From a virus, in IMG/VR virus record IMGVR_UViG_3300028195_000001, positions 1 to 64,000 of that record: a DNA stretch of 64,000 bases, one strand, 5' to 3'. A program made the position numbers and the translations under genes. Of this stretch, positions 11,108-31,040 are shown piece by piece (the stretch's first letter is position 1; every line of letters starts with the position of its first letter). The notes under the pieces were generated by a model that was not told the DNA's origin, did no database searches, and saw nothing but the letters and a program-made list of their open reading frames with translations.

Positions 11108-11125
11108 AACTTTCTCCTTTCGTAT

Positions 11126-11208: not shown

Positions 11209-11242
11209 AAAAAAATACCCCTCACGCATGTTTACGTGAGGG
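11209..11242 (-). terminator. rho-independent terminator after 11249..11503
   Basis: Stem CCCTCACG/CGTGAGGG (11219-11226 / 11235-11242) with an 8-nt loop. On the minus strand it is followed by GTATTTTTTT. Confidence 0.75.
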
Positions 11243-11248
11243 TGTATG

Positions 11249-11503: not shown

Positions 11504-11512
11504 TAGTCCTCC

Positions 11513-12818: not shown

Positions 12819-12848
12819 TAGATTTTCCTTTCAATTGGATAGAGGTTC

Positions 12849-12873
12849 GGGGGTGGTTGACCAGACCACCCCC
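12849..12873 (-). other. GC-rich hairpin without a U-tract (terminator-like or processing/stabiliser element)
   Basis: GGGGGTGGT (12849-12857) / ACCACCCCC (12865-12873) with a 7-nt loop, in the 12819-12903 gap. The stem core GGGGTGGT/ACCACCCC recurs at 47291-47315. Confidence 0.5.
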
Positions 12874-12903
12874 TAGCACAAAGGAGTGTTGCTTGTGGTT
12901 GAG

Positions 12904-14482: not shown

Positions 14483-14484
14483 AG

Positions 14485-14829
14485 TCACTCTCCTTTAGAC
14501 TTAGTATACCCGATTTTCTTTACTGTGTCAACCCCATCGTTAACCAAATGCTTTGTGAGAACGAATTTCCCTTGCACGATCTCATGCTTAGTGGTTGGGT
14601 CAATCGTTGAAAGGTACATTGTAATCAGACCATCACGAGATGTTACCTTACGACTAACGTGTTCGGAGGCAAGACCTAGCTTACGAGTAAGGTAAGGCAC
14701 TATCTTTTTTCCGATGCCTCTCCACCCTTCTGTTATACACAGAAGGGTGAACTCGATTTTGAACGTGTGCTCTGGTCTAGCGTAGGAATAAACGTCCGCT
14801 TTCCAGAGGTATTTCTCTTTTGAGTACAT
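14485..14829 (-). CDS. hypothetical protein
   Basis: 114-aa track ORF. Confidence 0.5.
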   Translation of the reverse strand: MYSKEKYLWKADVYSYARPEHTFKIEFTLLCITEGWRGIGKKIVPYLTRKLGLASEHVSRKVTSRDGLITMYLSTIDPTTKHEIVQGKFVLTKHLVNDGVDTVKKIGYTKSKGE

Positions 14830-14843
14830 AGGTAGGTTGTCGT

Positions 14844-16640: not shown

Positions 16641-18205
16641 TAGGAATTCTCCTTCATGCTTTCAGCAATTGCGAAAGCTGCGCCCATTCGGGCTGATTCA
16701 CGTTGGAAGATAGAAGCAACAAGGTCGGTTAGTTGCTCATTATCTGTGTATTCGTTAGCAATAACAGATAGTTTATCAATAACATCAGCAATCGTTTGTG
16801 ATGTTATCCCATTATCGTTTTCTGCTAACCCAAGTTCTACTAAACGATCACGTCCAGGTCGCTCGATTTTGAACGTTGTCGTGTAGGCTTGAATGAACTG
16901 TCCGGTTTGTTCGTCTGCACCAAATCGTGAGACATACCCAACTAACGGGTAACTGATTAGGTTATCCAACAGGTAATCAAGGTGAGTGACCGGGCATTCT
17001 TCAATCTGTGTATCAAAGCAACTATCACAAACTGAGAAACCTTCACCGTCAACGTACTGAGTATTTTCTTCTAACGTCCACTCATCACAGCACCCACAAG
17101 ATATTGCAACTTCTTCGATACAATCGTTGCAGTAGCACGTATCCCATTCATCGACTGAGAACATATTGTCTATGTTACCGATGTCACCACAATGTTCGCA
17201 ACGGCGGAATTGAGAAGAGTCATAGTAACCTTCCAGGTAATACGCGCCATCTACCTCAATGTAGTCATCACCTTCAAAGATCAGTTCTCCGCTGACTTCA
17301 CACGTTCCAATTACATCGTCTTGCCAGTGAAAATCATACTCATCGTAATCTTCAATCTCACCCTTACGTCCGATCAAAATGCCGCAAGAGTTATTGATGT
17401 ATAATGTCCCACAAGCGTCGCCATTGTTACGCAGGCTAATTTTCTTGTAGGTATATTCAGTACCTAACCATTGGGAGATCAATTGACCCAGGTATAATGT
17501 TTGGTCGCCCCAAACGTTTGGCCCGTACCCGTTAAAGAGTAGTATACTGTCCTCACAAACTTCGTCAAAAGCTACCCAAGCTCTCCCAACACCGTCACCA
17601 TTATCAAGGGTTGCTGTACCTTCCCGATAGACTTTAAGCGCCCATGCTGAGTGGTTTTCCATAATAGTACGTGCTTCGTTACGTCCACCCCAAAAGCACG
17701 AACCTCTATCACCAAAGTCACCAGCTTCCCAGTCGAAAGAGTTGTCAAAACAGAACACCATCGGAATGTTAGCTACGCTATGACGTGAACCTTCCTCTCC
17801 AAGAATTTGGAGAAGGTTGCCTTTGAACTTCCGTCCGTTATCGTGTGTATAATCGAGATGGAACTTCTTCAAACTGATAAGGTTTTCATAACGCTTGTGA
17901 TAATAAGCACCAATACGCTTGGATAACTTACCACTAACCTTATGTTCTTTCTTATCCCCTGGAATATGGAAAACATATTCCCCCACCAGCGCCCAGTCCC
18001 ACTCAGTCGGGAGCTTAGGGATGAACTTAAAGCCATGCTTATCCCACCATTCTTTAGACACACCTGTTGTTTGATCTTCCAAGTAGATCGTGTCTAAAAG
18101 TTGGCGGAGTAGGATTTGACCTTCCTCTGTTACTGCATGAACGCTTGGTGTGTAAGTGTAACGTTCACGTACATGAATATCACTGATTCGCAGATTATTA
18201 ATCAT
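16640..18205 (-). CDS. hypothetical protein with a C-terminal Cys-rich region; motif-level paralog of 18262..19101
   Basis: 521 aa. LPTEWDW, GRAWVAF..SILLFNGYG and EYTYKKISLRNNG parallel LPREWKWDW, GRCLIK..VHLILNGYS and EYRRVEVYNKG in the next gene. C-terminus has CEHCG..CYCNDC..CGCC..CDSC. Confidence 0.55.
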   Translation of the reverse strand: MINNLRISDIHVRERYTYTPSVHAVTEEGQILLRQLLDTIYLEDQTTGVSKEWWDKHGFKFIPKLPTEWDWALVGEYVFHIPGDKKEHKVSGKLSKRIGAYYHKRYENLISLKKFHLDYTHDNGRKFKGNLLQILGEEGSRHSVANIPMVFCFDNSFDWEAGDFGDRGSCFWGGRNEARTIMENHSAWALKVYREGTATLDNGDGVGRAWVAFDEVCEDSILLFNGYGPNVWGDQTLYLGQLISQWLGTEYTYKKISLRNNGDACGTLYINNSCGILIGRKGEIEDYDEYDFHWQDDVIGTCEVSGELIFEGDDYIEVDGAYYLEGYYDSSQFRRCEHCGDIGNIDNMFSVDEWDTCYCNDCIEEVAISCGCCDEWTLEENTQYVDGEGFSVCDSCFDTQIEECPVTHLDYLLDNLISYPLVGYVSRFGADEQTGQFIQAYTTTFKIERPGRDRLVELGLAENDNGITSQTIADVIDKLSVIANEYTDNEQLTDLVASIFQRESARMGAAFAIAESMKENS

Positions 18206-19103: not shown

Positions 19104-19406
19104 TCAGTCATTCTCCAACGTTATTTGCCGATAAAAACCATACGTTTCTTCTCGTATGATACGGGCAGGAACTAACTTTTGTGCAGCTTTTCTCAAAGCT
19201 GGTAATTCCCACTCAGTCATTTTACCAGCAACAATTATAGCATGATCGAAATGAGCAACGTCGAGTCGCCCCTGTGGTGTGTCGAAAGATTTTCGCCAGC
19301 ATTCCCCTAACGTAAACGAATGGTCACGTTCAAACTTTTTCTTGAACATGGGGGTGTTGCTGAGATGTACTCTTGCCCACATAGCTAACCCGGTGAGTTT
19401 AACCAT
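19104..19406 (-). CDS. hypothetical protein
   Basis: 100-aa track ORF. AAGGAG lies 6 nt upstream. Confidence 0.55.
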   Translation of the reverse strand: MVKLTGLAMWARVHLSNTPMFKKKFERDHSFTLGECWRKSFDTPQGRLDVAHFDHAIIVAGKMTEWELPALRKAAQKLVPARIIREETYGFYRQITLEND

Positions 19407-19755
19407 GCTTTGCTCCTTTCTTTTTGAAGTACCTTTGGTACAACGCTTCCATCCAGATTACATCGTCATGATCGGGAGGTAGTACCGCGTTCTTATGAGG
19501 AACGTTATACCAACTGTTATCCGAACTACGGGAGTAAACATGCACACCATCCCGGAAAACAAATCCACTTCTTGTCATGAAGTAGGGTTGGATATACTTT
19601 CTGTTACATCGGTGTGCCAACGTTTTTCGTATGTACATCGGCAGGAAAACGAGAATACGTTCTGGTCTACCTTTCTTGCTCATAGGATTGGGTAGACGAT
19701 GTTTTCTTTTTGCCCTTTGTTCTCCCACGCTTTTGACTTTGGACTTGCCTTTCAT
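19399..19755 (-). CDS. hypothetical highly basic protein
   Basis: 118-aa track ORF. Start context is CAGGAGAGACTTCTAATG. It overlaps the 3' end of 19667..20191 by 89 nt in another frame. Confidence 0.5.
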   Translation of the reverse strand: MKGKSKVKSVGEQRAKRKHRLPNPMSKKGRPERILVFLPMYIRKTLAHRCNRKYIQPYFMTRSGFVFRDGVHVYSRSSDNSWYNVPHKNAVLPPDHDDVIWMEALYQRYFKKKGAKHG

Positions 19756-20191
19756 TAGAAGTCTCTCCTGTTAGAGCGCCACTGGTTGCAGTAAATACTT
19801 GATCTGCAAACCTTTGCAGCCGAATGTTTTGAGTATGTAACTTCCTATTAGCTGCGTCCTTATCAGCTAATTCCATACGTAGTCGTCTAAGTTCTTGGTC
19901 ACGTTGTGTGTAACCCTGCAATATTGTTACATCATCTTCGGATAAATCCAGGTCACTTAACCCATGACGTTCCAATAATGGACGTGTTAGTGTGGGTGGT
20001 AACTTAGGTGGCCTATCCCGATACACAACCTTTGACTTCGGTGCTTGTTTATTAAGAGCGGAATCCCGTCCGCCCCTGATAGAATAAATAAGCACCCCCA
20101 TAAATGACCAGAGTGTGAACAATTCTATTGCACCAGCCCCCGCCAATGCAATACACCCGCACACCCATACCATAGTTATGAGGGTGGTCAT
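19667..20191 (-). CDS. hypothetical membrane protein (2 N-terminal TM segments, basic C-terminus)
   Basis: Track ORF 19667..20194 starts at GTG; an ATG is adjacent at 20189-20191. The N-terminus MTTLITMVWVCGCIALAGAGAIELFTLWSFMGVLIYSI is hydrophobic. Confidence 0.5.
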   Translation of the reverse strand: MTTLITMVWVCGCIALAGAGAIELFTLWSFMGVLIYSIRGGRDSALNKQAPKSKVVYRDRPPKLPPTLTRPLLERHGLSDLDLSEDDVTILQGYTQRDQELRRLRMELADKDAANRKLHTQNIRLQRFADQVFTATSGALTGETSNERQVQSQKRGRTKGKKKTSSTQSYEQER

Positions 20192-20193
20192 CA

Positions 20194-20631
20194 CTAGAAT
20201 TCCTCCGCAATACGTTTGATAGTGGGGAGGTCAACGCCAGAGATTATGACGTTGGGAAGTTTGGCAGGAGCTTTTTCGGTAGGTACACCCCAACCACTGA
20301 TTTTCTGACTATCGTTCTGGTACATGGTGAGGAAGGAACGTCCGTTGATTGCCCAAACACCTTTCTCTTTGTCATCCCAGTCACCGCAGTAGTCCTCATT
20401 GGCATCTACCACGATAACCTTGCCATCATTCTTCTGTTGTTCAACAACCTTGTGAACGTTATCCCGCAGGGTGATCGGAACGAGTACCGCTTTCTTGCCG
20501 GTATCCTTGACCACGATTTTTTTGGCGTGACCGGGAACACGTACCACCGGTACGCAAGGAAGGGGTTTGCCGTTACGTGCCATAGGTAATTCCTTTTCTT
20601 TGTTTGCGCCGTTCAGGTACAGATATAACAT
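20194..20631 (-). CDS. hypothetical protein
   Basis: 145-aa track ORF. AAGGAG lies 8 nt upstream of ATG 20629-20631. An alternative start at 20583 also has an SD. Confidence 0.55.
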   Translation of the reverse strand: MLYLYLNGANKEKELPMARNGKPLPCVPVVRVPGHAKKIVVKDTGKKAVLVPITLRDNVHKVVEQQKNDGKVIVVDANEDYCGDWDDKEKGVWAINGRSFLTMYQNDSQKISGWGVPTEKAPAKLPNVIISGVDLPTIKRIAEEF

Positions 20632-20674
20632 GATTGAAACTCCTTAGATTGATTAGATTTTTGCTGCCAGAACT

Positions 20675-20703
20675 ATCCTACCACAGGTCGGTTTCGGTGT
20701 CAA
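20675..20703 (-). promoter_or_regulatory. sigma70-type promoter (TTGACA-N17-TGgTAGGAT)
   Basis: Minus strand: TTGACA 20698-20703 (inside the end of 20678..21013), 17-nt spacer ending CCTGTGG, TAGGAT 20675-20680. Confidence 0.55.
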
Positions 20704-21013
20704 GTTTTTGCTCCACCAATAACATACCTGCGCTGTATCGGAACGTGATATTATCATCCGTGTATTCCAGGGGCGGGTTATACCGCTGAAATATTTGATG
20801 GATGAACGAAAGGTACAACTGCATCGGTGTAGCACCATGTATCTTGATGTATCTGTTGTCCATACACTTTCGCGCTTCATTAGACGCGGTAGCTACAATG
20901 GTATGGGGTGGGTATACTTCCACAAATAACCCTTGTGCATGATGCTTGTAGTATTCCCCTGTGTCTTTACTCAGTACATCAAGTAACAAGCCTACCTCAT
21001 GTGGTACATCCAT
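20678..21013 (-). CDS. hypothetical protein
   Basis: Track ORF 20678..21073. Start moved to ATG 21011-21013 (MDVPHEV), with GGAAGGAA 6 nt upstream, just after the upstream TAG. Confidence 0.5.
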   Translation of the reverse strand: MDVPHEVGLLLDVLSKDTGEYYKHHAQGLFVEVYPPHTIVATASNEARKCMDNRYIKIHGATPMQLYLSFIHQIFQRYNPPLEYTDDNITFRYSAGMLLVEQKLDTETDLW

Positions 21014-21014
21014 A

Positions 21015-21428
21015 CTACATTCCTTCCGGCTGTTTGCCGTTATCGTCATCGTCAGTGACAACGTTGTCATCATCGTCTAAGCTGTCATCATCAAACAGAG
21101 TTTCGTTCACAAACGACGACCAGGGTGAATTTTGCTCTGCTTCATCACGTTGTAACAAGGCGGAAATTTCTTGAAACAAACGTGTGACAACTTCCTTCGC
21201 ACTTTCTTCGTCATCCGGCCATGCCCATACTAAGGCCAACCGAAGGTAAAAGGTGTTGGAGTTGCTACCTTTGCGAATTTGGTTAACATATGTGTTGCTC
21301 CGCAGGAATTCCACAATTCTATCCTCATACTCCTGTAGAATTTCACATTCAACCAACCACTGAGCTTTGTTCTTACGTGCGTCCAAACGCACATCAGTTA
21401 CCACGAACACTTTAGGTTGTAACGGCAT
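21015..21428 (-). CDS. hypothetical protein with a poly-acidic C-terminus
   Basis: Track ORF 21015..21443. ATG 21426-21428 (MPLQPKV) follows GAGAGGA. The tail is DDDSLDDDDNVVTDDDDNG. Confidence 0.5.
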   Translation of the reverse strand: MPLQPKVFVVTDVRLDARKNKAQWLVECEILQEYEDRIVEFLRSNTYVNQIRKGSNSNTFYLRLALVWAWPDDEESAKEVVTRLFQEISALLQRDEAEQNSPWSSFVNETLFDDDSLDDDDNVVTDDDDNGKQPEGM

Positions 21429-21912
21429 CTGTAGTCCTCTCAACTAATTTCTTAAATGCGCCCCATACAGACGCACTATAGGCTTGCGTGCTAAAATCAT
21501 GAAGGTCAAGCTGTCTAAACGTATCGGCTAAGTGTACCTTGATTAACCTCCAATGGTTGCCGAAGGTAGACCTTCCCCCATAAATAACGCTATCATCTTC
21601 CGGGGAATAAGCGATTACATCCGGCCATTCCCATTTGTCATTCCAAGACTTATGCCCACCTCTTTGATATACATTCTGGTGATTGGGAAATACTTCACCA
21701 TCTGCATAACGTTTCGCCATGTTAGTGTGTCGCTTGGTAGTGATGCTTATCTCTGTTTTAAGCAGATAACGTTTCCCTTCTACAGTACGGCCTATCTCTT
21801 GGTTGAATGAGAAAAGACTCCCACCTTCTGAACGTAAGTTCTTTACCCGTCCTTCTCTACCTTCTGCCCAAGCTCGAATTACGTCCGCGTTTCTCCTTAA
21901 CCATTTTACCAT
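21412..21912 (-). CDS. hypothetical protein
   Basis: 166-aa track ORF with a CTAATG start overlapping the upstream stop. Confidence 0.55.
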   Translation of the reverse strand: MVKWLRRNADVIRAWAEGREGRVKNLRSEGGSLFSFNQEIGRTVEGKRYLLKTEISITTKRHTNMAKRYADGEVFPNHQNVYQRGGHKSWNDKWEWPDVIAYSPEDDSVIYGGRSTFGNHWRLIKVHLADTFRQLDLHDFSTQAYSASVWGAFKKLVERTTDAVTT

Positions 21913-22625
21913 TAGTGTACCCCACGACGACTAACGTTTAAGCCCCAAACATCATCTCCTATACGTTTCTCTATTAATCGCATAGCTTTAACAGAGGTAG
22001 GAGCATAATATGTCATAGGGTAGAAACCGGGATTGATACTCAAGTACCCGCAGATTGTGGTTTTGTTCAGGGTGTTTTTGACTAACCTGTGATAGAAGGT
22101 TATGTCCCACCCACCTTTCTGATGATGTCGGAAAATCGTATACACATCCCCATGACGAGTTTCAAACACAGTTGGCGTATTCCGTCGGTACAATTGCCAA
22201 ACGTGTTTGAACGAGTACATCGGCGGTGTTTCGGCTGTTACACGAAACAAACGACCTTGCCGGTCAATTTCTACCCCGATGGTAACGTCGCGATTGTGGT
22301 TCGCTAATACGTTTCGCTTTTGTCGAATAACACCAACAATTTTACGGGCTGTTTCCTCGGTGTACCAGCGTAATTCATGAGGACTTTTGTACAACGTTCT
22401 GTTGTTAGTTCGGTAAGCCAACCGCCGAACCAAATCCTTAAACATTGCCTGTTGTAGTTTATCGTCATAGAGACTCATCCCTGTGTAAGTCATCGAGTAC
22501 GTATCTTGAGGAAACACAGGTGTTACGTAGAATCTCTCAGAGTATACATTGTTACCAAACATAGATATATTTGGTAACATCTTCTTGGTATGGTACATAT
22601 TTAATTCGTACCTATCTACTTTCAT
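21912..22625 (-). CDS. hypothetical protein
   Basis: 237-aa track ORF. Start context is GGAGAAAATCTAATG. Confidence 0.55.
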   Translation of the reverse strand: MKVDRYELNMYHTKKMLPNISMFGNNVYSERFYVTPVFPQDTYSMTYTGMSLYDDKLQQAMFKDLVRRLAYRTNNRTLYKSPHELRWYTEETARKIVGVIRQKRNVLANHNRDVTIGVEIDRQGRLFRVTAETPPMYSFKHVWQLYRRNTPTVFETRHGDVYTIFRHHQKGGWDITFYHRLVKNTLNKTTICGYLSINPGFYPMTYYAPTSVKAMRLIEKRIGDDVWGLNVSRRGVH

Positions 22626-23167
22626 TAGATTTTCTCCATTAGATATGATATTGCTCTAGGTAAACCTATTCCAACAGAACGAATAGGTTGTCGGATATGC
22701 ACATCTGTTTCTACGTTAACTGCCCAAGTATCCCAGATACGTGAGTCCCGACGTTTGGCAAAGATGTCCCAATCACCTTCTCTCCATGTGGTATAAGATG
22801 GATGATTAGATAGGTGAACGTGGTTAGTTACTACAGGATGATGAACAGCTAGGCTCAAACAACGTATGTGCATAGCTACCAACTTACCCCCGTAAGCAAA
22901 CTCAAAACAACGCAACGTTCCCGGTGTACCTACAGTCCAAAACTGAGCCGGTAATTCATTCGTTCCTGTGTGAACATCGAGAGTATCAGGAAAATCTTCA
23001 CTTCTCCTTTTAATTTCCTGTTCACTTAATCCTAAACAACGGGTGGATTGGTAAAACGCTTTGATTAAATCCCGGCCTGTACCTACGTTGTAAACATTCC
23101 ACCAGTCTGTAGTAAACGTTCTGCCTAGTGAAACGCTTTGAACGTAAGACACTTTTTTGTAGATCAT
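22625..23167 (-). CDS. hypothetical protein
   Basis: Track ORF 22625..23182. ATG 23165-23167 gives an ATGA overlap with the upstream stop. Confidence 0.5.
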   Translation of the reverse strand: MIYKKVSYVQSVSLGRTFTTDWWNVYNVGTGRDLIKAFYQSTRCLGLSEQEIKRRSEDFPDTLDVHTGTNELPAQFWTVGTPGTLRCFEFAYGGKLVAMHIRCLSLAVHHPVVTNHVHLSNHPSYTTWREGDWDIFAKRRDSRIWDTWAVNVETDVHIRQPIRSVGIGLPRAISYLMEKI

Positions 23168-23430
23168 TGGAGCATCTTCCATAGCTTCTGGTACGTCCGG
23201 GCAACCAACTCACTACTCATACCAACTACCTTGAACTGCTTCCCAACAACCTTACGACTCCATGTGTCGTGTTCTATAACCGTGAGTCCTATTTCATCGG
23301 ACATACGTTCCCAACGATTGCCGGTATAAGATTTAGCTTTGGCTAAAAGATCGGGGTTAGCTTCTAACGTTCTGTGCATATTCCAGGCAATACACGAGCT
23401 TTTTTGGTCTTGCGATACACGGTCTTGCAT
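23164..23430 (-). CDS. hypothetical protein
   Basis: Track ORF 23164..23475 starts at TTG. ATG 23428-23430 is preceded by AAGGGAGTCTAAAATG. Confidence 0.5.
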   Translation of the reverse strand: MQDRVSQDQKSSCIAWNMHRTLEANPDLLAKAKSYTGNRWERMSDEIGLTVIEHDTWSRKVVGKQFKVVGMSSELVARTYQKLWKMLQ

Positions 23431-23461
23431 TTTAGACTCCCTTGATAGATTTTGATAGGTT

Positions 23462-23548
23462 TTAGCGTCGGTCAAACATGGACGCTACAATACGTAGACA
23501 CACTACAACCACCGCAAAAAGGATGATTGCGTTAATTACCATCTCCAT
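23462..23548 (-). CDS. possible 28-aa hydrophobic miniprotein
   Basis: My own translation is MEMVINAIILFAVVVVCLRIVASMFDRR. The start sits in GGGAGGTTCTAATG and overlaps the upstream TAA. One TM-length hydrophobic run. Confidence 0.35.
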   Translation of the reverse strand: MEMVINAIILFAVVVVCLRIVASMFDRR

Positions 23549-23829
23549 TAGAACCTCCCAACGTATGCCATTACCTGAGTGACCTTCGGCTTCCCATATC
23601 TAGGGTTAGTATCGGGTACAAATATTTTCCCGTAGACATGACCTCCAACTACGTAATACATTTCCCTAGCAAACGTAAACGTTGTCCCGATGGCGCTCAT
23701 TCCTTTCTCCATCTCGTCAATCTTTATCGCATGATTACGGACGATGTTTAACCATCCCGGCATCATGTTTGGTACAACCTTATACTCTTTCTCTCCTAGC
23801 ACCAATTTAGTCGGATACACATTAATCAT
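23548..23829 (-). CDS. hypothetical protein
   Basis: 93-aa track ORF with an ATGA overlap with the upstream gene. Confidence 0.55.
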   Translation of the reverse strand: MINVYPTKLVLGEKEYKVVPNMMPGWLNIVRNHAIKIDEMEKGMSAIGTTFTFAREMYYVVGGHVYGKIFVPDTNPRYGKPKVTQVMAYVGRF

Positions 23830-24116
23830 TTGTACACGTCCTTTGTTGATACAATAAAATAGGATACAATGTAAGGATTATGTAACGACCCAGAAAAATG
23901 ATAATCCATACGTATATACCCATCTTCTTGAATTTCTTCAAGCCTACCATTATACGAAGGTTGGAGGTCAAAGATGTCATCATGTATATCCCGGTAACAA
24001 TCTTTTAATGTTGTGGAACGTATCCGAAGAATATGCCATGATTTGATTACCCTTAAATCAGACGGAATACGCTCAGATAAAGGGTGAACATCAACTACAT
24101 AAATTGTATGAATCAT
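23826..24116 (-). CDS. small protein, possible distant member of the ERxIE array
   Basis: Track ORF to 24122 starts at GTG. ATG 24114-24116 follows AAGGGAG. STTLKDCYRDIHDDIF only loosely matches the family helix. Confidence 0.5.
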   Translation of the reverse strand: MIHTIYVVDVHPLSERIPSDLRVIKSWHILRIRSTTLKDCYRDIHDDIFDLQPSYNGRLEEIQEDGYIRMDYHFSGSLHNPYIVSYFIVSTKDVYK

Positions 24117-24128
24117 TCCCACTCCCTT

Positions 24129-24157
24129 AGTCTACCACAGGACGAAATTTCTGTCAA
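24129..24157 (-). promoter_or_regulatory. sigma70-type promoter (TTGACA-N17-TGgTAGACT) inside the paralog array
   Basis: Minus strand: TTGACA 24152-24157, 17-nt spacer ending CCTGTGG, TAGACT 24129-24134. Only 12 nt separate it from ATG 24116. Confidence 0.6.
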
Positions 24158-24161
24158 GTTC

Positions 24162-24440
24162 TTATACGGTGCATTCACGAATAATGAACGCGGTTTGTTG
24201 CTTGGGATTACCCGTCCAATCAGAATAGTATACACGACAACGTAGTACACTAACGCTTATTTGCGTATACTGTACACGTGTCTCCTTCCAATCGGCATGA
24301 ATGGAGCATTGATACAAGTAATCTTCAAACCAACGTATCACCTTTTTCTGTGTGTTGGATGAATATTGCCAAGTACCTCGTAGGATGTTAGATGGTTCTA
24401 CTACTGGCGCACCAGATTGAAGGTACAGCCTATATTTCAT
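24162..24440 (-). CDS. ERxIE-motif small protein, array member 9
   Basis: Start chosen at MKYRLYLQSG (ATG 24438-24440). The helix motif is NTQKKVIRWFEDYLYQ. Confidence 0.55.
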   Translation of the reverse strand: MKYRLYLQSGAPVVEPSNILRGTWQYSSNTQKKVIRWFEDYLYQCSIHADWKETRVQYTQISVSVLRCRVYYSDWTGNPKQQTAFIIRECTV

Positions 24441-24738
24441 ACCTACGCCCTTTCCCATAAACTATGTAATATGTAGATATACTGTGAGAATTGTTTGCAT
24501 GATTAAACTGTACATGGATACGAGTAACGTTAGGTGTATCTTGGAAACGTTCTAAAATTTGGGCGGAATCGTCCTCCCACTCATGACAAAGATTGTGAAT
24601 ATGGGTTTCGATAGCACGTTCAGCTTCTCGGTGCGTGTCGAAAGGAAACCCTCTTATCCAGACCGCCAAGTGTTCGGAATCTTCCCATGCTTTGCGACCC
24701 CAATACACATAGATACGATACTTCTTAGACATACTCAT
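24430..24738 (-). CDS. ERxIE-motif small protein, array member 8
   Basis: KKYRIYVYWG ... THREAERAIETHIHNL ... TRIHVQF. Confidence 0.6.
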   Translation of the reverse strand: MSMSKKYRIYVYWGRKAWEDSEHLAVWIRGFPFDTHREAERAIETHIHNLCHEWEDDSAQILERFQDTPNVTRIHVQFNHANNSHSISTYYIVYGKGRRYEI

Positions 24739-24994
24739 GGTATCGGTACTCCAAGACCAACCCTAAACAAGTATGTTTACAGGTATTGTTATCCCATTCA
24801 ACTTGGTCTACACCTGGACGATTCTGAAACTCACGTTCTATAAAACGTTGGATGTCTTGTTCTGTACCATTTTGGATTATCCAACAACGATTATTTTCCG
24901 CCGCTTGCTCAAACGTAATGAAGGAGTCGGCACGCTTTGCTATCGTCCATTGGTCGTGCCATAGGTAGTAGATAACCCATCTCTTAACCATCAT
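24725..24994 (-). CDS. ERxIE-motif small protein, array member 7
   Basis: Start moved to MMVKRWVIYYLW (AAGAGGAA upstream). TEQDIQRFIEREFQNR ... DQVEWDNNTC. Confidence 0.55.
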   Translation of the reverse strand: MMVKRWVIYYLWHDQWTIAKRADSFITFEQAAENNRCWIIQNGTEQDIQRFIEREFQNRPGVDQVEWDNNTCKHTCLGLVLEYRYHEYV

Positions 24995-25235
24995 GTTCCT
25001 CTTTGATAGCATACATAGTGTAATGACCAAAGTTACGACCACCCACTACAGTACAAGTAGATAGAAAACCTTCTGCTTTGCCCCATTGAACACGACTAAA
25101 ATTAAATAAAAGAACGTGTTCAATGTAACGTTCAACATCACGTAATGACGTTTGTGGTATACTGCGAGAGTAAAGAGATCGTTGGAACTTATCTTCTTGA
25201 TCGTGCTTAACGTATAGAACAAACATCTGCACCAT
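24984..25235 (-). CDS. ERxIE-motif small protein, array member 6
   Basis: Start moved to MVQMFVLYVKHD (GGAGGG upstream). TSLRDVERYIEHVLLF ... SRVQWG. Confidence 0.55.
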   Translation of the reverse strand: MVQMFVLYVKHDQEDKFQRSLYSRSIPQTSLRDVERYIEHVLLFNFSRVQWGKAEGFLSTCTVVGGRNFGHYTMYAIKEEHDG

Positions 25236-25236
25236 G

Positions 25237-25500
25237 TTAGTACACCCTCCACCAACTAACATAGACGAGTTCACCGACTACGTTGTACATATAACAAACG
25301 TTGTCATGCCATTCTACACGATGAATTAGTGATTGGCCATATAATTGCATGTCCCTTTCTATATAACGTTCTACGTTCTTATACGAACTAGCGCTAAAGT
25401 AGCGAAACGGGGAGATGTCGTAGTTAACTATCGCTCTTTCATTGTCAATACAAAACCGTACCCTTTCATCATCTGCCAACCATATCTCATATTCAGCCAT
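25237..25500 (-). CDS. ERxIE-motif small protein, array member 5
   Basis: Start moved to MAEYEIWLADD (GGAGGA upstream). SYKNVERYIERDMQLY ... HRVEWHDNVC. Confidence 0.55.
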   Translation of the reverse strand: MAEYEIWLADDERVRFCIDNERAIVNYDISPFRYFSASSYKNVERYIERDMQLYGQSLIHRVEWHDNVCYMYNVVGELVYVSWWRVY

Positions 25501-25756
25501 ACCAGTATATCCTCCGTAATTTACCATACGTATAGACAAAGCACATCTCTCGTAACCACACAATACGAATATCGTATGTACTACTGTGTTGACTTTGTAT
25601 CCAAGTTTCTATAGCACGTTCAGCATCACGTATAGTGAGATAACACAGGTGACAAGAATAAGAAAACCAATCTGCCATTTCCTCCCAGGATGAAAAGTTT
25701 TCATCTCTGTCCTGGCAGATTTTAATGGTCGATAGGTTTAGGTAATAGATGTTCAT
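25493..25756 (-). CDS. ERxIE-motif small protein, array member 4
   Basis: Start moved to MNIYYLNLS (ATGA overlap). TIRDAERAIETWIQSQ ... IRIVW. Confidence 0.55.
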   Translation of the reverse strand: MNIYYLNLSTIKICQDRDENFSSWEEMADWFSYSCHLCYLTIRDAERAIETWIQSQHSSTYDIRIVWLREMCFVYTYGKLRRIYWYG

Positions 25757-26052
25757 ACGTTCTCCCACCCTGCTATGGCGAAAATTCCTACCTCATCCGT
25801 TGATATATAATGTATCATACATACCTGAACTATTTGATTAATGGCAAAAACATCTGGGGTGTGTTTCACCCAGGTTATGCGCCTAACGGTAACATTCCGC
25901 CACGTTTGACACAAACGTTCTACCTTAAGTTCAGCTTCCTGTATGGTAGCATACGACTTAGACTCAATCATGAAGAAACGTTTAGTTTTCTCCAAGTATG
26001 AAAAGTCTAAATTAAGCATATAATCCTTATGTTCAAGGATAACGTATCTCAT
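25753..26052 (-). CDS. ERxIE-motif small protein, array member 3 (divergent)
   Basis: MRYVILEHKD ... TIQEAELKVERLCQTW ... RRITWV. GGAGGAGGT lies directly upstream. Confidence 0.55.
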   Translation of the reverse strand: MRYVILEHKDYMLNLDFSYLEKTKRFFMIESKSYATIQEAELKVERLCQTWRNVTVRRITWVKHTPDVFAINQIVQVCMIHYISTDEVGIFAIAGWENV

Positions 26053-26291
26053 ACCTCCTCCTTATCGTACCATAAACGTATGTATAACTTATTACTGTCT
26101 ATACGACGGACACAACAAACGTTATCCACCCACTCCACCCGGAGGTTCTTAGCCCACTGTTTAGCGTGGTGATGGACTTTTCTTTCTATCCAACGTTCTA
26201 TATCTCGTTGTGTCCAATTAGGAAGGATACGTTTGCGATGTACATCATCGTACAACCCATAAAAAGTCCAGTAAATTCGTCGTTGTTTCAT
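26049..26291 (-). CDS. ERxIE-motif small protein, array member 2
   Basis: QRRIYWTFYG ... TQRDIERWIERKVHHH ... LRVEWVDNVC. Confidence 0.6.
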   Translation of the reverse strand: MKQRRIYWTFYGLYDDVHRKRILPNWTQRDIERWIERKVHHHAKQWAKNLRVEWVDNVCCVRRIDSNKLYIRLWYDKEEV

Positions 26292-26518
26292 GATTCATAC
26301 CATAAAGCTACCCACAACCGACCATCATCCAGATAAACTTCACAACTTGTTTCTGTGTCCCATATAACAGACATACGATCTTTGACTCGATTGGTGAATA
26401 CGATTGCCCATATCTTATCTTCTATAACACGTTGAATTTCTCGTGTAGTAGGTAAATCAGGCGTAGGTTCATAATGTGTATCATTCCCAGATGAACTACA
26501 AAACTTCCAGAGAATCAT
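26288..26518 (-). CDS. ERxIE-motif small protein, array member 1
   Basis: TTREIQRVIEDKIWAI ... MSVIWDTETSC ... LWVALWYES. Confidence 0.55.
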   Translation of the reverse strand: MILWKFCSSSGNDTHYEPTPDLPTTREIQRVIEDKIWAIVFTNRVKDRMSVIWDTETSCEVYLDDGRLWVALWYES

Positions 26519-26519
26519 A

Positions 26520-26873
26520 TTACCCCCTCATATTCTGCGGATACCAAACCATTTCGTATTCACCCCACTTAGTAAGGTTGGGTGAAACACGCTCGAAGTG
26601 AGCTTTTTCATACAGGGCTTGAGCAGGAATGTTACTCTGTACCACATGCAAATGCAATGGTTTGTCATAAGCTATTTGTTTAGCTATGTCCAAAACCATT
26701 GTAGCATAACCTAAACGTTGGTACTCAGAGAATATTTCTAATCCGTGTATCCAAATTCTTGAACCTATTTCTGTTAACCCACAACCACCAACGTATTCAC
26801 TGTTATCATATAGTAAAATAACGTAAGTGTATACACAATGATCGTCTTTCACTACGAAATTCATGTTAATCAT
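26520..26873 (-). CDS. GNAT-family N-acetyltransferase (minimal, 117 aa)
   Basis: Acetyl-CoA motif A-like EYQRLGYATMVLDIAK, and AQALYEKAHFERV (A-x-x-L-Y-x-K-x-x-F). Confidence 0.65.
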   Translation of the reverse strand: MINMNFVVKDDHCVYTYVILLYDNSEYVGGCGLTEIGSRIWIHGLEIFSEYQRLGYATMVLDIAKQIAYDKPLHLHVVQSNIPAQALYEKAHFERVSPNLTKWGEYEMVWYPQNMRG

Positions 26874-26875
26874 GA

Positions 26876-27163
26876 TTAGTCCTTAATCATTAACCTTAGA
26901 TTGCGAAAGGTTCTGGTAGTCATACGAAAACCTAGTTTTTTATACAGGGCAATCGCTGTGTAGTTTGTTACCGATACGTGTAGGTGGTAAGGAGGTGGGA
27001 ACACCTCAAATACCTTATTAAGCATAGCCGTAGCTAAACCCTGACGACGATGTTCAGGACGTACATTGATGCTTTCTATGTACGTACAATCGGGTTGGGG
27101 GTCAACGATTGTTAACCCCTTCCCCTGTACCTTGACGATGGTTGCGTTATGCTTGACGTTCAT
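26876..27163 (-). CDS. GNAT-family N-acetyltransferase (minimal, 95 aa)
   Basis: INVRPEHRRQGLATAMLNKV (V-x-P-x-x-R-x-x-G-h-A) and AIALYKKLGFRM. Confidence 0.7.
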   Translation of the reverse strand: MNVKHNATIVKVQGKGLTIVDPQPDCTYIESINVRPEHRRQGLATAMLNKVFEVFPPPYHLHVSVTNYTAIALYKKLGFRMTTRTFRNLRLMIKD

Positions 27164-27183
27164 CAGAACGTACCAGTAAGGGA

Positions 27184-27267
27184 TTACTTCTTATTCATGT
27201 AGGCGATGAACATCAAGAACAAGAGGAACATCCCGATCAGGATTAATTCGTTGGTTGTAATGGGCAT
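27184..27267 (-). CDS. possible 27-aa hydrophobic miniprotein
   Basis: My own translation is MPITTNELILIGMFLLFLMFIAYMNKK. It starts 1 nt after the upstream TAA and fills the 27164-27268 gap. Confidence 0.35.
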   Translation of the reverse strand: MPITTNELILIGMFLLFLMFIAYMNKK

Positions 27268-27268
27268 A

Positions 27269-27535
27269 TTAGCCCTCCATTAACTCAAATGCTTTTTGTC
27301 GGACTGATACATCTCTGGGTAAACGTTCTGCCGCAGCTTCGTCGTACCCAGTAGTAACAGCAATGGTTGGGGGCATACAGACACAGAAGGATGGATAAGA
27401 CCTTGCTTCCTGTGTTGCTGTGTGCCAGTCGGTGATTAACAACCCATGTATCTGTTTGGGTGTAATCTTAAAGTATCGGCAATCGGTGTGGTTACGAGAA
27501 TGTTTGATTACCAGGACAATGATGTGTGTTCTCAT
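27269..27535 (-). CDS. hypothetical protein
   Basis: 88-aa track ORF with an ATGA-type overlap upstream. Confidence 0.5.
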   Translation of the reverse strand: MRTHIIVLVIKHSRNHTDCRYFKITPKQIHGLLITDWHTATQEARSYPSFCVCMPPTIAVTTGYDEAAAERLPRDVSVRQKAFELMEG

Positions 27536-27903
27536 AGGTAAGTTTTCTCGTTGTAAATGAATTTATCCCAGGTATACCGGGGGATGTTAACACCGTTAGA
27601 AATCAAAACGCTATAGGTTGCCCCATAACGTGCGCCACCTAGTGGGAAGGAACGTTCCTCTGTGATTTGCACACCTTCACGTTGGTAGCAAACGTGCCGG
27701 TTTTGATCGAGAAATACTTGAGCAACCAACACCCAATCATGTTCCAGTTCGTACCAACCAACGATCTCGATAACGTTTTCTTCTTTGTGGTATTGACCGG
27801 TGAGAAAAGTAACATTTTCATCGGTAGCATGATTAGCAACCATGTCCAGAACGTTCTGAATAAGACGTACATCTGATGGCTGTGATTTAGTTGATATTGG
27901 CAT
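27532..27903 (-). CDS. hypothetical protein; homologous to the N-terminal half of 28238..28777
   Basis: GVNIPRYTWDKF versus GVLIPQLTWDLF, and IVGWYELEHDWVLVAQVFLDQNRHVCY versus LTGWDADFEDEYPFLYFVNEDGTFMYH. GGAGGA SD. Confidence 0.55.
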   Translation of the reverse strand: MPISTKSQPSDVRLIQNVLDMVANHATDENVTFLTGQYHKEENVIEIVGWYELEHDWVLVAQVFLDQNRHVCYQREGVQITEERSFPLGGARYGATYSVLISNGVNIPRYTWDKFIYNEKTYL

Positions 27904-27905
27904 TT

Positions 27906-28241
27906 TTATTCCTCCAATACATTGCTGATACGAATAACGTTAAACTCAATTGTACCTAAACGTGGCTCTCTACCCCACGTACCGACATTGAACATCTGCA
28001 AGGCATGGTAGAAGGTATCAACAGTTGAGTACGATGTGACCAATTCGTCTGTACCAACCTTATAAACGTTGACCGTACCATCTTCCTGCAAGAAAACGTC
28101 ATACTTTACCGCAATGTGAAACGGTGTGTATAACCCTAGAAAACCCGCCCAACCATTACCTATTACAGAGAAACACGATTCTTCATGAGCAAAGAAATCA
28201 GGCAGGTTATTGAACGTTAAGCTGTCCTCAATAAAAGTCAT
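27906..28241 (-). CDS. hypothetical protein; resembles the C-terminal half of 28238..28777
   Basis: SLTFNNLPDFF..GFLGLY..DGTVNVYKVG..STVDTFYHAL versus AVTFPLPDNMV..GVLGIV..YGSVVFYFEG..STQSFDNYCA. Confidence 0.5.
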   Translation of the reverse strand: MTFIEDSLTFNNLPDFFAHEESCFSVIGNGWAGFLGLYTPFHIAVKYDVFLQEDGTVNVYKVGTDELVTSYSTVDTFYHALQMFNVGTWGREPRLGTIEFNVIRISNVLEE

Positions 28242-28777
28242 GAGAAGATAACCTCTATGCCATGCTTAGCACAATAATTGTCAAAAGACTGGGTGGACAT
28301 GAACGTTGTAGAATGATGTCCCTCAAAGTAGAATACGACACTACCGTAATCGTCGCGTTTACCTTGTAGTTTACCATAGAACTTACCTTTGTCAACGATA
28401 CCCAATACTCCGACGGTATCACTCGTCCATACCATGCGAACAGGCCAATCGCTCTCAACCATGTTGTCAGGTAAGGGAAAGGTTACGGCTAATGCTAGGT
28501 CGGAGAATAAGTCCCAAGTAAGCTGCGGGATAAGTACCCCGGCTAACCGCATCGTTTCCCAACTCAGTTCGATAACCTTTGCCTCTGCAATGTAGCCTAT
28601 TCCGTGATAGTGGTACATGAATGTACCATCTTCGTTCACGAAGTACAGGAAGGGGTACTCATCTTCAAAATCAGCGTCCCACCCTGTAAGGACAAGGGTA
28701 TGGCTATCTTGGTCAAGGTATGCCCTAACGTATAGCAGGTTATGTGCTTCTGCTTTTCGTAACAGGTGTTCTAACAT
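28238..28777 (-). CDS. hypothetical protein (fused counterpart of the 27532/27906 gene pair)
   Basis: Track ORF 28238..28951. Start moved to MLEHLLRKAE (ATG 28775-28777, AAAGGAAA upstream), because the track N-terminus overlaps 28740..29213. Confidence 0.5.
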   Translation of the reverse strand: MLEHLLRKAEAHNLLYVRAYLDQDSHTLVLTGWDADFEDEYPFLYFVNEDGTFMYHYHGIGYIAEAKVIELSWETMRLAGVLIPQLTWDLFSDLALAVTFPLPDNMVESDWPVRMVWTSDTVGVLGIVDKGKFYGKLQGKRDDYGSVVFYFEGHHSTTFMSTQSFDNYCAKHGIEVIFS

Positions 28778-29213
28778 AACGTTTCCTTTCTTGGTAATCT
28801 TTTTCGCTGGTAAATCCAGCCTTGATACGTAGTTGCATTGCTGTGTGCGAGTAATAATTAGCATCAGCCGCAGCCCGGATGCTACTGTATTGTACACCAT
28901 TCCAGGTACAAGGTATAGACCTATCTCCCCTGTCTGGTACATCTTCATCACAGGTATACCCTGCTTGTATCCTATTCCATAACGTACCCGGTAAAATGCC
29001 TAATGTTATCGCGGCTTGCCGAATACTAGGGTAGGTCACATCATTCCAGGTACATTCGATAGCACTACCGGGCAATCGGGTATCAGCATCACAAACGTAC
29101 CCCCTACGTAGATGACGTTGGAAGGTATGAATATTATACCCATTAGCTTCCGCAGCACCTACTACTGATGGATAGGTTGTACCATTCCAGGTACATAGTT
29201 TAGTGTTGGGCAT
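28740..29213 (-). CDS. DNA-binding protein candidate with three tandem NUMOD1/HTH-like repeats
   Basis: Start at ATG 29211-29213 (GGAAGGA upstream). Three units of about 47 aa: CTWNGTTYPSVVGAAEANGYNIHTFQRHLRRGY, CTWNDVTYPSIRQAAITLGILPGTLWNRIQAGY, CTWNGVQYSSIRAAADANYYSHTAMQLRIKAGF. Confidence 0.55.
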   Translation of the reverse strand: MPNTKLCTWNGTTYPSVVGAAEANGYNIHTFQRHLRRGYVCDADTRLPGSAIECTWNDVTYPSIRQAAITLGILPGTLWNRIQAGYTCDEDVPDRGDRSIPCTWNGVQYSSIRAAADANYYSHTAMQLRIKAGFTSEKDYQERKRYVRTPVTKSRST

Positions 29214-29247
29214 GTTATCCTTCCTATAATTGTTACCAGGACAGTAT

Positions 29248-29271
29248 GTACCTAAGCCACCTCTTAGGTAC
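29248..29271 (-). other. hairpin without a U-tract, downstream of the cold-shock-like gene
   Basis: gtacctaag (29248-29256) / cttaggtac (29263-29271), 9-bp stem with a 6-nt loop. Confidence 0.45.
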
Positions 29272-29290
29272 ACACAAGCCCGATGACAAT

Positions 29291-29497
29291 CTATGTAAGA
29301 GAAACATTACGGGCTACGAAACCTTTGTCGGTGATTTCTACCTCAAACAATACCTTCGTACCAAAGGTGATATTGTCAGGCAGAGGGAAATTCCAGATAA
29401 CAGTGTCGTAACCTACTCCGTCACCTTCAATGATAGCGTATTTCCCAGGTTCACTAATGTAACGAACTGTACCTTGAATCTTTTGATTTTTGTTCAT
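29291..29497 (-). CDS. cold-shock-domain/OB-fold-like small protein
   Basis: Start moved to MNKNQKIQGTVRY (GGAGGT 4 nt upstream). GTVRYISEPGKYAIIEGDG..DTVIWNF...GTKVLFEVEITDKGFVARNV follows the CspA layout (G-x-V-x-h-h...G-h-h...V-x-F-x-h...G-x-x-A-x-N-V). Confidence 0.5.
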   Translation of the reverse strand: MNKNQKIQGTVRYISEPGKYAIIEGDGVGYDTVIWNFPLPDNITFGTKVLFEVEITDKGFVARNVSLT

Positions 29498-29515
29498 TGT
29501 TACCTCCATAAAATA

Positions 29516-29540
29516 GGGCAATCCTCTTTGTTTTCTACCC
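29516..29540 (-). repeat. GGCAATCC..GTTTTCTACC repeat, isolated copy A
   Basis: gggcaatcctctttgttttctaccc lies between the stop of 29535..29831 and the SD of 29291..29497, and is preceded by an A-run. Confidence 0.8.
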
Positions 29541-29831
29541 GGTAGTGTGCTGTTGATAACGTACCTCGTTACCTTCCAACAATGCCAGAACTTTGTTAGT
29601 ATCTAGCAAACGTAACTTGTGATGCTTCTCACCTTTCATGAAAGGGCTGTTAAGATGATACCCCATCGTTTGCCAATTGAACAAGGTGCAAACGTGCTTA
29701 CCAGCTTGATCGAACAAAGTGAAGGAATGGAATGTACCTTTATCCCACACTGTATCATAGGTGTAAGCTGCATCAAAGAAAGGTTGGAGTATGACCTGAT
29801 AAACAAAGGGTAATCTGAGTGTTTCAAACAT
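29535..29831 (-). CDS. hypothetical protein
   Basis: 98-aa track ORF. Confidence 0.5.
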   Translation of the reverse strand: MFETLRLPFVYQVILQPFFDAAYTYDTVWDKGTFHSFTLFDQAGKHVCTLFNWQTMGYHLNSPFMKGEKHHKLRLLDTNKVLALLEGNEVRYQQHTTG

Positions 29832-29866
29832 GCTAACCTACTTTCGTAAAGATAAGGGTTAAAAAA

Positions 29867-30044
29867 GGGGCAATCCCGCTGTTTTCTACCTCTGTAAAAA
29901 AGGGGCAATCCGACCTTAAAAAAAAGGGGCAATCCGACTGTTTTACCGCGCCCCTAAAAGAGGCCAATCCGGTCAAAATTCAGACGAGAGATTACCCCTA
30001 AGTTAAAGCAACTGTCAGGAAGGCCAATCCCGCTGTTTTTCACC
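29867..30044 (-). repeat. cluster of five direct GG(G/C)CAATCC(N2-3)CTGTTTT(C)(T)ACC repeats in a 208-bp non-coding gap
   Basis: Copies start at 29867, 29902 (truncated), 29926, 29962 (variant) and 30022. All are in the same orientation and each is preceded by A4-8. Spacing is 35/24/36/60 bp. Confidence 0.85.
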
Positions 30045-30810
30045 AAACAAATTGCACCCAATCCAACGTTTGGACGTTCCAGTGATCGAGAACTTGCAGC
30101 AATCGTTCCGGGTTCAAAGACCGTAACGTATGGCCTTTAGAATTATCCTCTGGATGGTAAAAGCGGGTAGCCTTAATATCGGTATGGTTATCCCGGTCAA
30201 CTAACTCCACACAGGTGAGGATATGCCATTCACCTTCTGCCTCAGCTTCCAGATAACCTTGCCCGGAAAGCTCAGTAACAAAGCGCATCTTCAAAGGGTT
30301 AACAATTGCCGGGTAAAAGACCTTGACCAAATACTCAATATCATCGCGGTAAACCGCCCCGCTGGTGAGCCTTACCAAGTCACTTACAATCTTGTTACGT
30401 TGCCGATTAGCTTCTGCCCAGTGAATGCTTCGGGTCTGCCGGGTTTTCCAGGTATAGTGAACGTCCCAGATCAAGAAAATCGGGTTAAGCTGCCAGGGAA
30501 CGTTTTTATATACCCAGAACGCTTTTTGTAAATCTGAGAAGATACGTTCCAACCAAATCGAGTAATCAATCTTACGATTATGTCGCCAGAACGTATAGCG
30601 TGACTGAACCTGGAAGGCCGGTTGTCCTAACAATTTTCCCACGATCTTAATGACCGTTTCTTCCAGGTGATGCCCAACGTTTGCGACAACGTGACGACAG
30701 TGTTGGTACAGGGGAATGTTGAGAACACGGCCTATAACACCGGAAATAAGCCAGCCTAACAAGCAGTAAAACATAATCCACAACGTGTGATACAGTGTAT
30801 CTTGAGACAT
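30040..30810 (-). CDS. hypothetical membrane-anchored protein (first gene of the leftward arm)
   Basis: Track ORF to 30846 starts at TTG; ATG 30808-30810 (MSQDTLYHTLWIMFYCLLGWLISGVIG) is preferred. One N-terminal TM segment. Confidence 0.5.
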   Translation of the reverse strand: MSQDTLYHTLWIMFYCLLGWLISGVIGRVLNIPLYQHCRHVVANVGHHLEETVIKIVGKLLGQPAFQVQSRYTFWRHNRKIDYSIWLERIFSDLQKAFWVYKNVPWQLNPIFLIWDVHYTWKTRQTRSIHWAEANRQRNKIVSDLVRLTSGAVYRDDIEYLVKVFYPAIVNPLKMRFVTELSGQGYLEAEAEGEWHILTCVELVDRDNHTDIKATRFYHPEDNSKGHTLRSLNPERLLQVLDHWNVQTLDWVQFVW

Positions 30811-31040
30811 TATATTACCTTTCTGCTCCGCAGAGCAATTAGACAAGGTTTTTTATACTTTTTTTCCCTGTGTATACAGGGAGGTTAAATTACCTTGTCA
30901 GGGATACCTGATTAGAGAGTGGTTACAGCGTTACAACAGTGTTGGTACAGCGTAGGTACGGTGTGAAAACAAAGTAACCATGTTTATAACTGGTAACGTT
31001 GTCATTACAGGCAAAAGGTCAGACTCGCTCTCCACCCACA

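Follow-up and report, generated by a model that had tools for sequence, protein, structure and literature searches.

Introduction

Tandem expansions of paralogous genes are known in phage genomes. In the gene accordion of the poxvirus K3L gene, tandem amplification of a small host-interaction gene serves as an arms-race response, and the copies are recent, near-identical and unstable. Orphan immunity-gene arrays beside polymorphic toxin loci contain tandem, diversified proteins of ~80–120 amino acids (aa) with specific binding. Host-takeover modules of the SPO1 type are for the most part collections of unrelated genes, and many of these have a promoter of their own. The subject of this study is a string of ten small minus-strand genes, g01 to g10, at positions 23826–26518 of a 64,000-nucleotide (nt) stretch of viral DNA (positions 1 to 64,000 of IMG/VR record IMGVR_UViG_3300028195_000001), which was analysed as a whole and is called the window. 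An earlier note, made from the letters of the window alone, had described this string as an array of ten divergent paralogs. Nine of the genes are established here as paralogs.

The SPO1 host-takeover region is a precedent for small early gene clusters in lytic phages (PMC2147016). Like clusters of that type, the array is a block of short genes, mostly ORFans, near the early promoter end and upstream of the replication genes. Unlike them, it is one coupled string of nine or ten paralogs that share one predicted fold. Tandem amplification is shared with the accordions, and in a related contig, L016, the family amplified at about this position is a different one. Unlike accordion copies, the array copies are only 11–32% identical and are fixed, being the same in every sampled copy of the phage. 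The array differs from immunity-gene arrays in lying in a putative phage early operon, with no toxin gene nearby and no Imm match above threshold. The longin/roadblock and YeeU(CbeA) domains have the same strand-strand-helix-strand-strand-strand order and are the top but weak PDB neighbours, with template modelling (TM) scores of 0.2–0.43 and expect values (E) ≥0.012. Unlike longin/roadblock proteins, the predicted array fold has no C-terminal helices, and there is no sequence signal. Phage proteins in the BFVD database (A0A6J5KSG7, A0A2L0UZK4 of Agrobacterium phage Atu_ph07, A0A2D1ADZ7 of Rhodococcus phage Trina, and proteins of Pseudomonas phage Phabio) are like the array in size and predicted fold. 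They are uncharacterised and gave no signal in hidden Markov model (HMM) searches, and the likeness is one of size and predicted fold. In the literature only general precedents for such an array were found, and no described equivalent.

Identification of the paralogous genes

The ten proteins were compared by profile methods, using composition-preserving shuffles and the 154 other window open reading frames (ORFs) of 60–130 aa as background. In leave-one-out HMM tests g03, g04, g05, g06, g07, g09 and g10 scored 12–33 bits, a level reached by 0/500 shuffles and 0/154 background ORFs. A jackhmmer search that had g09 as its only seed and covered all six-frame segments of the window, together with two related loci, converged on exactly these seven proteins. 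By these sequence comparisons the seven (the core) are clearly homologous. Against the core profile g08 scored 11.5 bits (2/2000 shuffles, 0/154 background ORFs) and g02 scored 6.7 bits (13/2000 shuffles, 0/154 background ORFs), so that membership of both is supported at p of about 0.001–0.007. A six-frame scan of the window with the profile returned g08 as the top match outside the training set (E=0.0056) and no further family members among other window ORFs. The only other paralog pair in the window detectable by BLAST consists of two GNAT genes.

The tenth protein, g01, scored 2.2 bits against the core profile, which was reached by 108/2000 shuffles and 3/154 background ORFs. In hhalign comparisons both g08 (P=0.0056) and g01 (P=0.042) aligned in the register of the motifs. 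We regard g01 as a possible tenth member, marginal by sequence (p ~0.05) and with the same order of predicted structural elements. Of the ten paralogs originally counted, nine were homologous in the profile tests, and the caution that had been attached to g01 was justified.

The family had been recognised by a helix motif and a V-E-W-x-D-N-x-C strand. When the 64-kb window is translated in all six frames, it contains the strict helix motif, [TS]-x-[RQK]-[DEN]-[AIV]-[EQ]-R-x-I-E, seven times. All seven occurrences lie in the array, one per gene and in the annotated frames. The strand motif is less general, its full form being present in only 3–4 members. Besides Met1, only Arg33, Glu36 and Trp54 (g09 numbering) are invariant in the alignment of eight members. 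Pairwise identity averages ~20% with a range of 11–32%, in line with the near-complete divergence outside the anchors that had been described. Identity is no higher between neighbouring genes, which indicates that the duplications are old or that divergence was fast. At the DNA level the repeat families of the region correspond to the helix motif and the RVEW-DNVC strand, and the motif DNA of g07 and g03 is 88% identical over 26 nt.

A shared motif in unrelated small genes could be coincidental. Pairwise BLAST is indeed weak for most pairs (the best, g06/g09, gives E=4e-7 by BLASTP in a ten-sequence database), and g01 alone is not significant. However, the profile scores of seven members exceed those of every shuffle and every other window ORF, two more members exceed nearly all of them, jackhmmer recovers the seven from one seed, and the strict motif is confined to the array. 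With profile comparisons significant for g02–g10, coincidence is refuted at the level of sequence for nine members and remains for g01 only. As an account of the whole array we find it scarcely credible.

Layout and coding capacity of the array

Examination of the ORF list between 22.5 and 28 kb gave ten consecutive minus-strand ORFs of 76–102 aa in an unbroken string (Table 1). All were present where the earlier note had placed them, and the peptides it quoted were correct. Gene limits were set by inspecting each ORF's start codon and upstream sequence. The ten intact ORFs occupy ~97% of the 2.7 kb, a region of ~40% GC, and the array makes up ~3% of the 82.5-kb phage genome. Using a codon-usage model trained on 13 long window ORFs, the annotated frame had the best score for 10/10 genes. 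The same proteins were predicted by public gene callers on independent assemblies, where g05 is an 83-aa protein (P0004). All ten ORFs are protein-coding.

A purine-rich Shine-Dalgarno (SD) sequence precedes most starts, and ATGA-type overlaps occur at the junctions. Overlaps of 4–14 nt had been reported for the string and were found at seven junctions (4, 4, 4, 8, 11, 14 and 11 nt). Between g06 and g05 there is instead a gap of 1–10 nt, and a gap of 45 nt separates g02 from g01. Downstream, g01 overlaps by 4 nt, and is coupled with, an unrelated 93-aa gene (23548–23829). Members differ widely in isoelectric point (pI 4.6–9.7) and net charge (−5.4 to +6.8).

These features bear on the idea that the array is a leftover of an old amplification, with drifting ORFs of little or no present function. 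Extreme divergence, the lack of homologues elsewhere and the absence of the family from related genomes would fit such an origin. On the other hand ten ORFs are intact, SDs and coupling overlaps are kept, in-frame codon usage is the best in every gene, and scaffold residues are retained at 11–32% identity. The intact ORFs, SDs, codon usage and scaffold residues argue for purifying selection on folded proteins. Phage genome size is moreover limited by the capsid. We consider leftovers very unlikely.

A promoter had been placed inside the array. The site, which lies in the g02/g01 gap, is a true consensus match with an extended -10 element, but promoter-like matches are not enriched in the region (19 found versus 26.5 expected). 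The distance from the -10 hexamer to the g01 ATG is ~12 nt, leaving a leader of ~6 nt. A transcript starting there would have nearly no leader and would lose most of the g01 SD, so that a functional role is doubtful, and the site is listed as a predicted element only.

Table 1. Genes of the array, the genes directly upstream and the promoter-like site, in the order of transcription of the minus strand.
Feature	Position	Strand	Length	Helix motif	Strand motif	Remarks
Mini-GNAT acetyltransferase	26876–27163	-	95 aa			Tandem paralog of the next gene
Mini-GNAT acetyltransferase	26520–26873	-	117 aa			Directly upstream of g10, 1-nt spacer
g10	26288–26518	-	76 aa	TTREIQRVIE	SVIWDTETSC	Core member; first array gene; starts 1 nt past the stop of the upstream GNAT gene; SD GAGGGGG; leave-one-out HMM 12.1 bits, 0/500 shuffles; recruited by jackhmmer from g09
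g09	26049–26291	-	80 aa	TQRDIERWIE	LRVEWVDNVC	Core member; nearest to family consensus; pI 9.7; leave-one-out HMM 32.6 bits; ATGA overlap with g10
g08	25753–26052	-	99 aa	TIQEAELKVE	RITWVKH	Divergent member
g07	25493–25756	-	87 aa	TIRDAERAIE	IRIVWLREMC	Core member; leave-one-out HMM 22.7 bits
g06	25237–25500	-	87 aa	SYKNVERYIE	HRVEWHDNVC	Core member; pI 4.9; leave-one-out HMM 21.8 bits
g05	24984–25226	-	80 aa (83 aa from start 25235)	SLRDVERYIE	RVQWGK	Core member; leave-one-out HMM 15.6 bits
g04	24725–24994	-	89 aa	TEQDIQRFIE	DQVEWDNNTC	Core member; SD AAAGAGG; leave-one-out HMM 20.2 bits
g03	24430–24738	-	102 aa	THREAERAIE	CHEWEDD	Core member; longer C-terminal part; leave-one-out HMM 16.6 bits
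g02	24162–24440	-	92 aa (98 aa from start 24458)	TQKKVIRWFE	HADWKE	Weakly supported member; final gene of the translationally coupled block; not recruited by jackhmmer
Sigma-70-like promoter match	24129–24157	-				TTGACA-17-TAGACT, extended -10 TG, 10/12; in the g02/g01 gap; predicted element
g01	23826–24116	-	96 aa	TLKDCYRDIH		Possible tenth member

Predicted structure of the array proteins

The structure of g09 was predicted with AlphaFold2 using an alignment of eight paralogs. The model had a mean predicted local distance difference test score (pLDDT) of 78.7 and a predicted TM score of 0.63, and all five models fell at pLDDT 75–79. It comprises strands b1 (residues 3–10) and b2 (18–24), a helix (28–46), and strands b3 (50–55), b4 (58–63) and b5 (69–75). 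The modelled helix begins just after the conserved Thr, with an Asp or Glu three residues on, and the conserved T-x-x-[DE] at this point probably forms a classical capping box. From the alignment and the model, the invariant Arg, Glu and Trp and the alternating hydrophobic residues would occupy core or packing positions. A single-sequence model of g01, of low confidence (pLDDT 58), has the same b-b-a-b-b-b order, with the helix following its S-T-T. The g01 and g09 models have 12 of their top 50 BFVD neighbours in common, which lends modest independent support, at the level of models, to membership of g01.

Foldseek comparison of the g09 model with the PDB gave no match below E=0.01; the best had E=0.012 and a TM score of 0.43. 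Most PDB neighbours had TM scores of 0.2–0.43 at a root-mean-square deviation (rmsd) of around 10 Å, and no housekeeping family was matched confidently. In BFVD the model resembles many uncharacterised phage proteins of 75–95 aa (probability ~1.0, TM score up to 0.70 at an rmsd of 2.7 Å). Sequence identity to these proteins is 5–18% and E ranges from 2e-3 to 4e-2. As far as models can tell, the fold is a recurrent fold of small phage proteins without a characterised representative.

Several named families were considered and rejected. Longin/roadblock (LC7) domains appeared in Foldseek at E 0.026–0.4 and TM scores of 0.2–0.33, and the g09 model stops at b5 and lacks a C-terminal helix. The Longin match of g08 in Pfam is sub-threshold (13.9 bits versus a cut-off of 26.2 bits). 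A HicB-like/UPF0150 antitoxin N-terminal domain, suggested by an N-terminal strand with a T-x-x-E-A helix behind it, gave no Pfam match at E≤1 and no PDB sequence match at E≤10, and no structure of the HicB/TTHA0281 type was among the top 50 Foldseek PDB matches. A resemblance to the WWE domain was dropped as well.

The weak top PDB neighbours include dimerising platform domains (sedlin, Ykt6, LAMTOR/MP1-p14). The paralogs might be subunits of homo- or hetero-oligomers, built by edge-strand pairing in the manner of roadblock/longin domains and serving phage replication, transcription or morphogenesis instead of acting on host proteins. Translational coupling of nine genes favours balanced co-production, and the replication module follows shortly downstream of the array, both of which would suit such a role. 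Against it, the PDB matches are not significant, the charges of the members differ widely, and two related contigs, L015 and L016, have the replication genes but no family member, which speaks against a core function. We regard an oligomer of this kind as unlikely.

A second structural lead points to neutralising proteins. The array could be a bank of neutralising proteins of the antitoxin or immunity type, each sequestering a different toxin, either from host abortive-infection systems or of the polymorphic kind. The size, solubility and tandem diversified layout of the members resemble immunity-gene arrays of type VI secretion, contact-dependent inhibition and Rhs systems. There are also faint matches, of g10 to Imm27 (E=0.27) and of the g09 model to YeeU/CbeA and YfjZ structures at ranks 5, 16 and 32. 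All of these are far below threshold. The Imm27 match scored 11.6 bits versus a cut-off of 27.3 bits, with no match for the other members, and Imm27 was rejected. The CbeA/YeeU (type IV) antitoxin was rejected likewise, its structures 2h28 and 2ea9 having E 0.09–0.3 and TM scores of 0.26–0.28. Pfam and PHROG scans found no toxin family among the genes neighbouring the array. A neutraliser bank is quite unlikely in our judgement, and is really a special case of the host-interaction reading favoured below.

Searches for relatives in databases

When 1.84 billion representative proteins were searched exhaustively with the family HMM, the matches were seven proteins of the phage itself and one spurious repeat protein. 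The latter, P0010, is a 1715-aa metagenome protein and was the sole non-self match. It contains 12 near-identical tandem repeats (…AVSWAANHCFSTD…), each of which matches ~20 profile positions, so that its score is a summed repeat artefact and it is not a homologue. A word-seeded search of 5.8 billion clustered proteins, run with the ten-member alignment and with g01 alone, produced self matches only. Pfam, PHROGs, PADLOC and NCBIfam gave only sub-threshold and inconsistent matches for all ten proteins. Searching PDB sequences with the family profile gave no match at E≤10, and a scan of IMG/VR with g09 gave none.

The family had not been recognised from the letters, and no library searched holds a homologue. 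On the sequence evidence the family is an ORFan, itself undescribed and apparently confined to one phage lineage.

Metagenome copies and related genomes

The phage was found in several metagenome assemblies, including a contig of 82,528 bp. Its source samples are ERZ27237645, ERZ27245994, SRR8437213, SRR7265440 and SAMN08283975. Contigs of several independent assemblies end inside g06/g07 between 25441 and 25551 (at 25441, 25462, 25468 and 25551), which could reflect low coverage or unassembled variation within the array. The first 115 nt of one contig, L005, do not match the window and look like an assembly chimera.

Related loci were collected through a 521-aa protein encoded at 16640–18205 on the minus strand; a metagenome scan with its alignment gave 47 loci. 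The core of this protein, SCFWGGR / WxAGDFGD, is invariant, and C-x2-C pairs occur in it several times. Homologues of 25–35% identity occur on many unrelated phage and metagenome contigs, one of them binned with an Anaerolineae metagenome-assembled genome. It matched no Pfam or PHROG family, and nothing in a scan of IMG/VR. In 56 loci (357 kb), mostly around homologues of the 521-aa protein and most of them not syntenic with the window, 0 members of the array family were found.

The 521-aa protein has homologues of 29–31% identity on the Logan contigs L015 (81.7 kb) and L016 (60.1 kb). The replication genes (window positions 3122–18205) are collinear in both, at 29–52% amino-acid identity. Window positions 21.4–30.8 kb, array included, have no counterpart in L015 or L016, and neither contig carries a family member. 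L016 (Logan SRR13838937) has a tandem array of its own just upstream of the shared genes, with at least five consecutive paralogs of 160–180 aa and a sixth copy 3 kb away, at 1–2558 and 5253–6017 in all. The paralogs share VDFVEPY and YKS motifs. A second paralog pair is present at 3033–3987. The L016 paralogs are unrelated to the window family. The missing counterpart in both contigs, together with the different array in L016, places the window array in a region of fast turnover. By sequence comparison, L016 appears to have amplified another family independently in roughly the same place.

Genomic context of the array

The window belongs to a tailed phage with a large terminase (36613–38190), a tape-measure protein (52932–61115) and a primase-like protein (3122–6301). 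The phage is probably siphovirus-like and from an unsampled lineage, as far as its genes indicate. DNA comparison with ~50,000 GenBank phages, in near and distant modes, gave no match. In IMG/VR the terminase found only relatives of 28–29% identity on short contigs, and GenBank phages and IMG/VR together hold no relative above ~30% terminase identity. A scan of genome contigs with a conserved 415-aa protein, aimed at the host, gave no match, and Rfam and tRNA scans of the window were likewise negative. At 2727 aa the plus-strand tape-measure protein implies that the tail is unusually long for a phage of 82.5 kb.

Gene strand and GC skew switch near 32 kb, with the structural genes running rightwards. 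The minus-strand arm opens with small unknown genes, and the replication genes come later. A divergent region lies at 30.8–32.2 kb, with the strongest minus-strand promoter match (11/12) at 31587–31560. The array is 5–8 kb downstream of this region, in the minus-strand (early/non-structural) arm, a position from which early expression may be expected. It forms part of a 12-kb minus-strand block (19104–31000) in which nearly all genes lack a Pfam or PHROG match, the two GNATs excepted.

The GNAT genes directly upstream of g10 encode proteins that are 34% identical to each other. Their public copies match Pfam Acetyltransf_1/7/10, and the PHROG acetyltransferase matches have E=1e-12 and 4e-9. 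N-alpha-acetyltransferases are the PDB matches, with no other close solved relative found. Small GNATs of phages can modify the host or counter its defences. Both proteins are truncated, keeping mainly the acetyl-CoA-binding half, and the genes are translationally coupled to the first array gene. The apparent gap upstream of the GNAT genes is occupied by a 27-aa minus-strand ORF at 27183–27266 (MPITTNELILIGMFLLFLMFIAYMNKK) with a GGAGGG SD and a single hydrophobic, membrane-type helix.

Proposed role of the array

We tentatively favour, at somewhat less than even confidence, a family of small early proteins that is specific to this lineage, has been amplified and diversified and interacts with the host, with a presumed function in host takeover or anti-defence. 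Repeated tandem duplication in the early arm of a siphovirus-like phage would have been followed by divergence of the copies. Each copy would be a small, soluble, single domain in which a five-stranded antiparallel sheet packs on one amphipathic helix. The scaffold residues would have been kept while loops, exposed positions and net charge changed almost wholly. Genes g10 to g02 would be translated by coupling from one polycistronic message, behind the two small GNATs. Each paralog might then bind its own host protein, or its own variant of a single one, and the array would act as a panel of host-takeover or anti-defence inhibitors. Host-target binding and a takeover or anti-defence role are suggested by the charge range, by where the array lies and how its operon is built, and by the parallel amplification in L016. 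The variable surfaces, with charges from −5 to +7, may carry different specificities.

Several results weigh against this host-interaction reading. The simple fold is common to many small viral proteins and so carries little functional information. No member resembles a known anti-defence, antitoxin, toxin-antitoxin or immunity protein by sequence, nor convincingly by fold. Anti-CRISPR, anti-restriction-modification and Tad/Gad/Acb families gave no PHROGs or Pfam match and were absent from the PDB fold matches, no dedicated anti-defence library such as dbAPIS having been searched. The array neighbourhood has no recognised anti-defence marker, and the mini-GNATs are only suggestive. Finally, ten metagenome contigs are 99.8–100% identical to the window, with no copy-number or sequence variation showing ongoing positive selection.

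The earlier note had proposed an arms-race role, in anti-defence, host takeover or as decoys, and a candidate undescribed system. The first proposal is consistent with the early arm, the variable block, the charge range and the GNATs; no member matches a known anti-defence family. The second goes too far, as nothing points to joint action of the ten products. We do not view the array as a new kind of system; for a phage of 82 kb the number of copies is high, and L016 with its parallel array provides a useful lead.

A bolder version of the host-interaction reading, which we hold to be possible though doubtful, extends this lead. The interval between the early promoters and the replication genes would be a hot spot in which different families of small proteins are independently amplified to 6–10 copies and diversified. 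The array would then be a new family of anti-defence or host-takeover inhibitors with one host target per copy, and a long-lived phage counterpart of viral gene accordions.

That ~3% of the genome is given to nine to ten diversified ORFan copies suggests lasting selection for a range of specificities. Should they be inhibitors, the copies would form a ready-made set of natural variants on one scaffold of ~80 aa (model pLDDT ~79), of use for finding host targets or defence systems and for following the evolution of binding specificity. The amplification of a different family in L016 hints at a little-studied form of phage adaptation, in which local gene amplification operates beside horizontal exchange.

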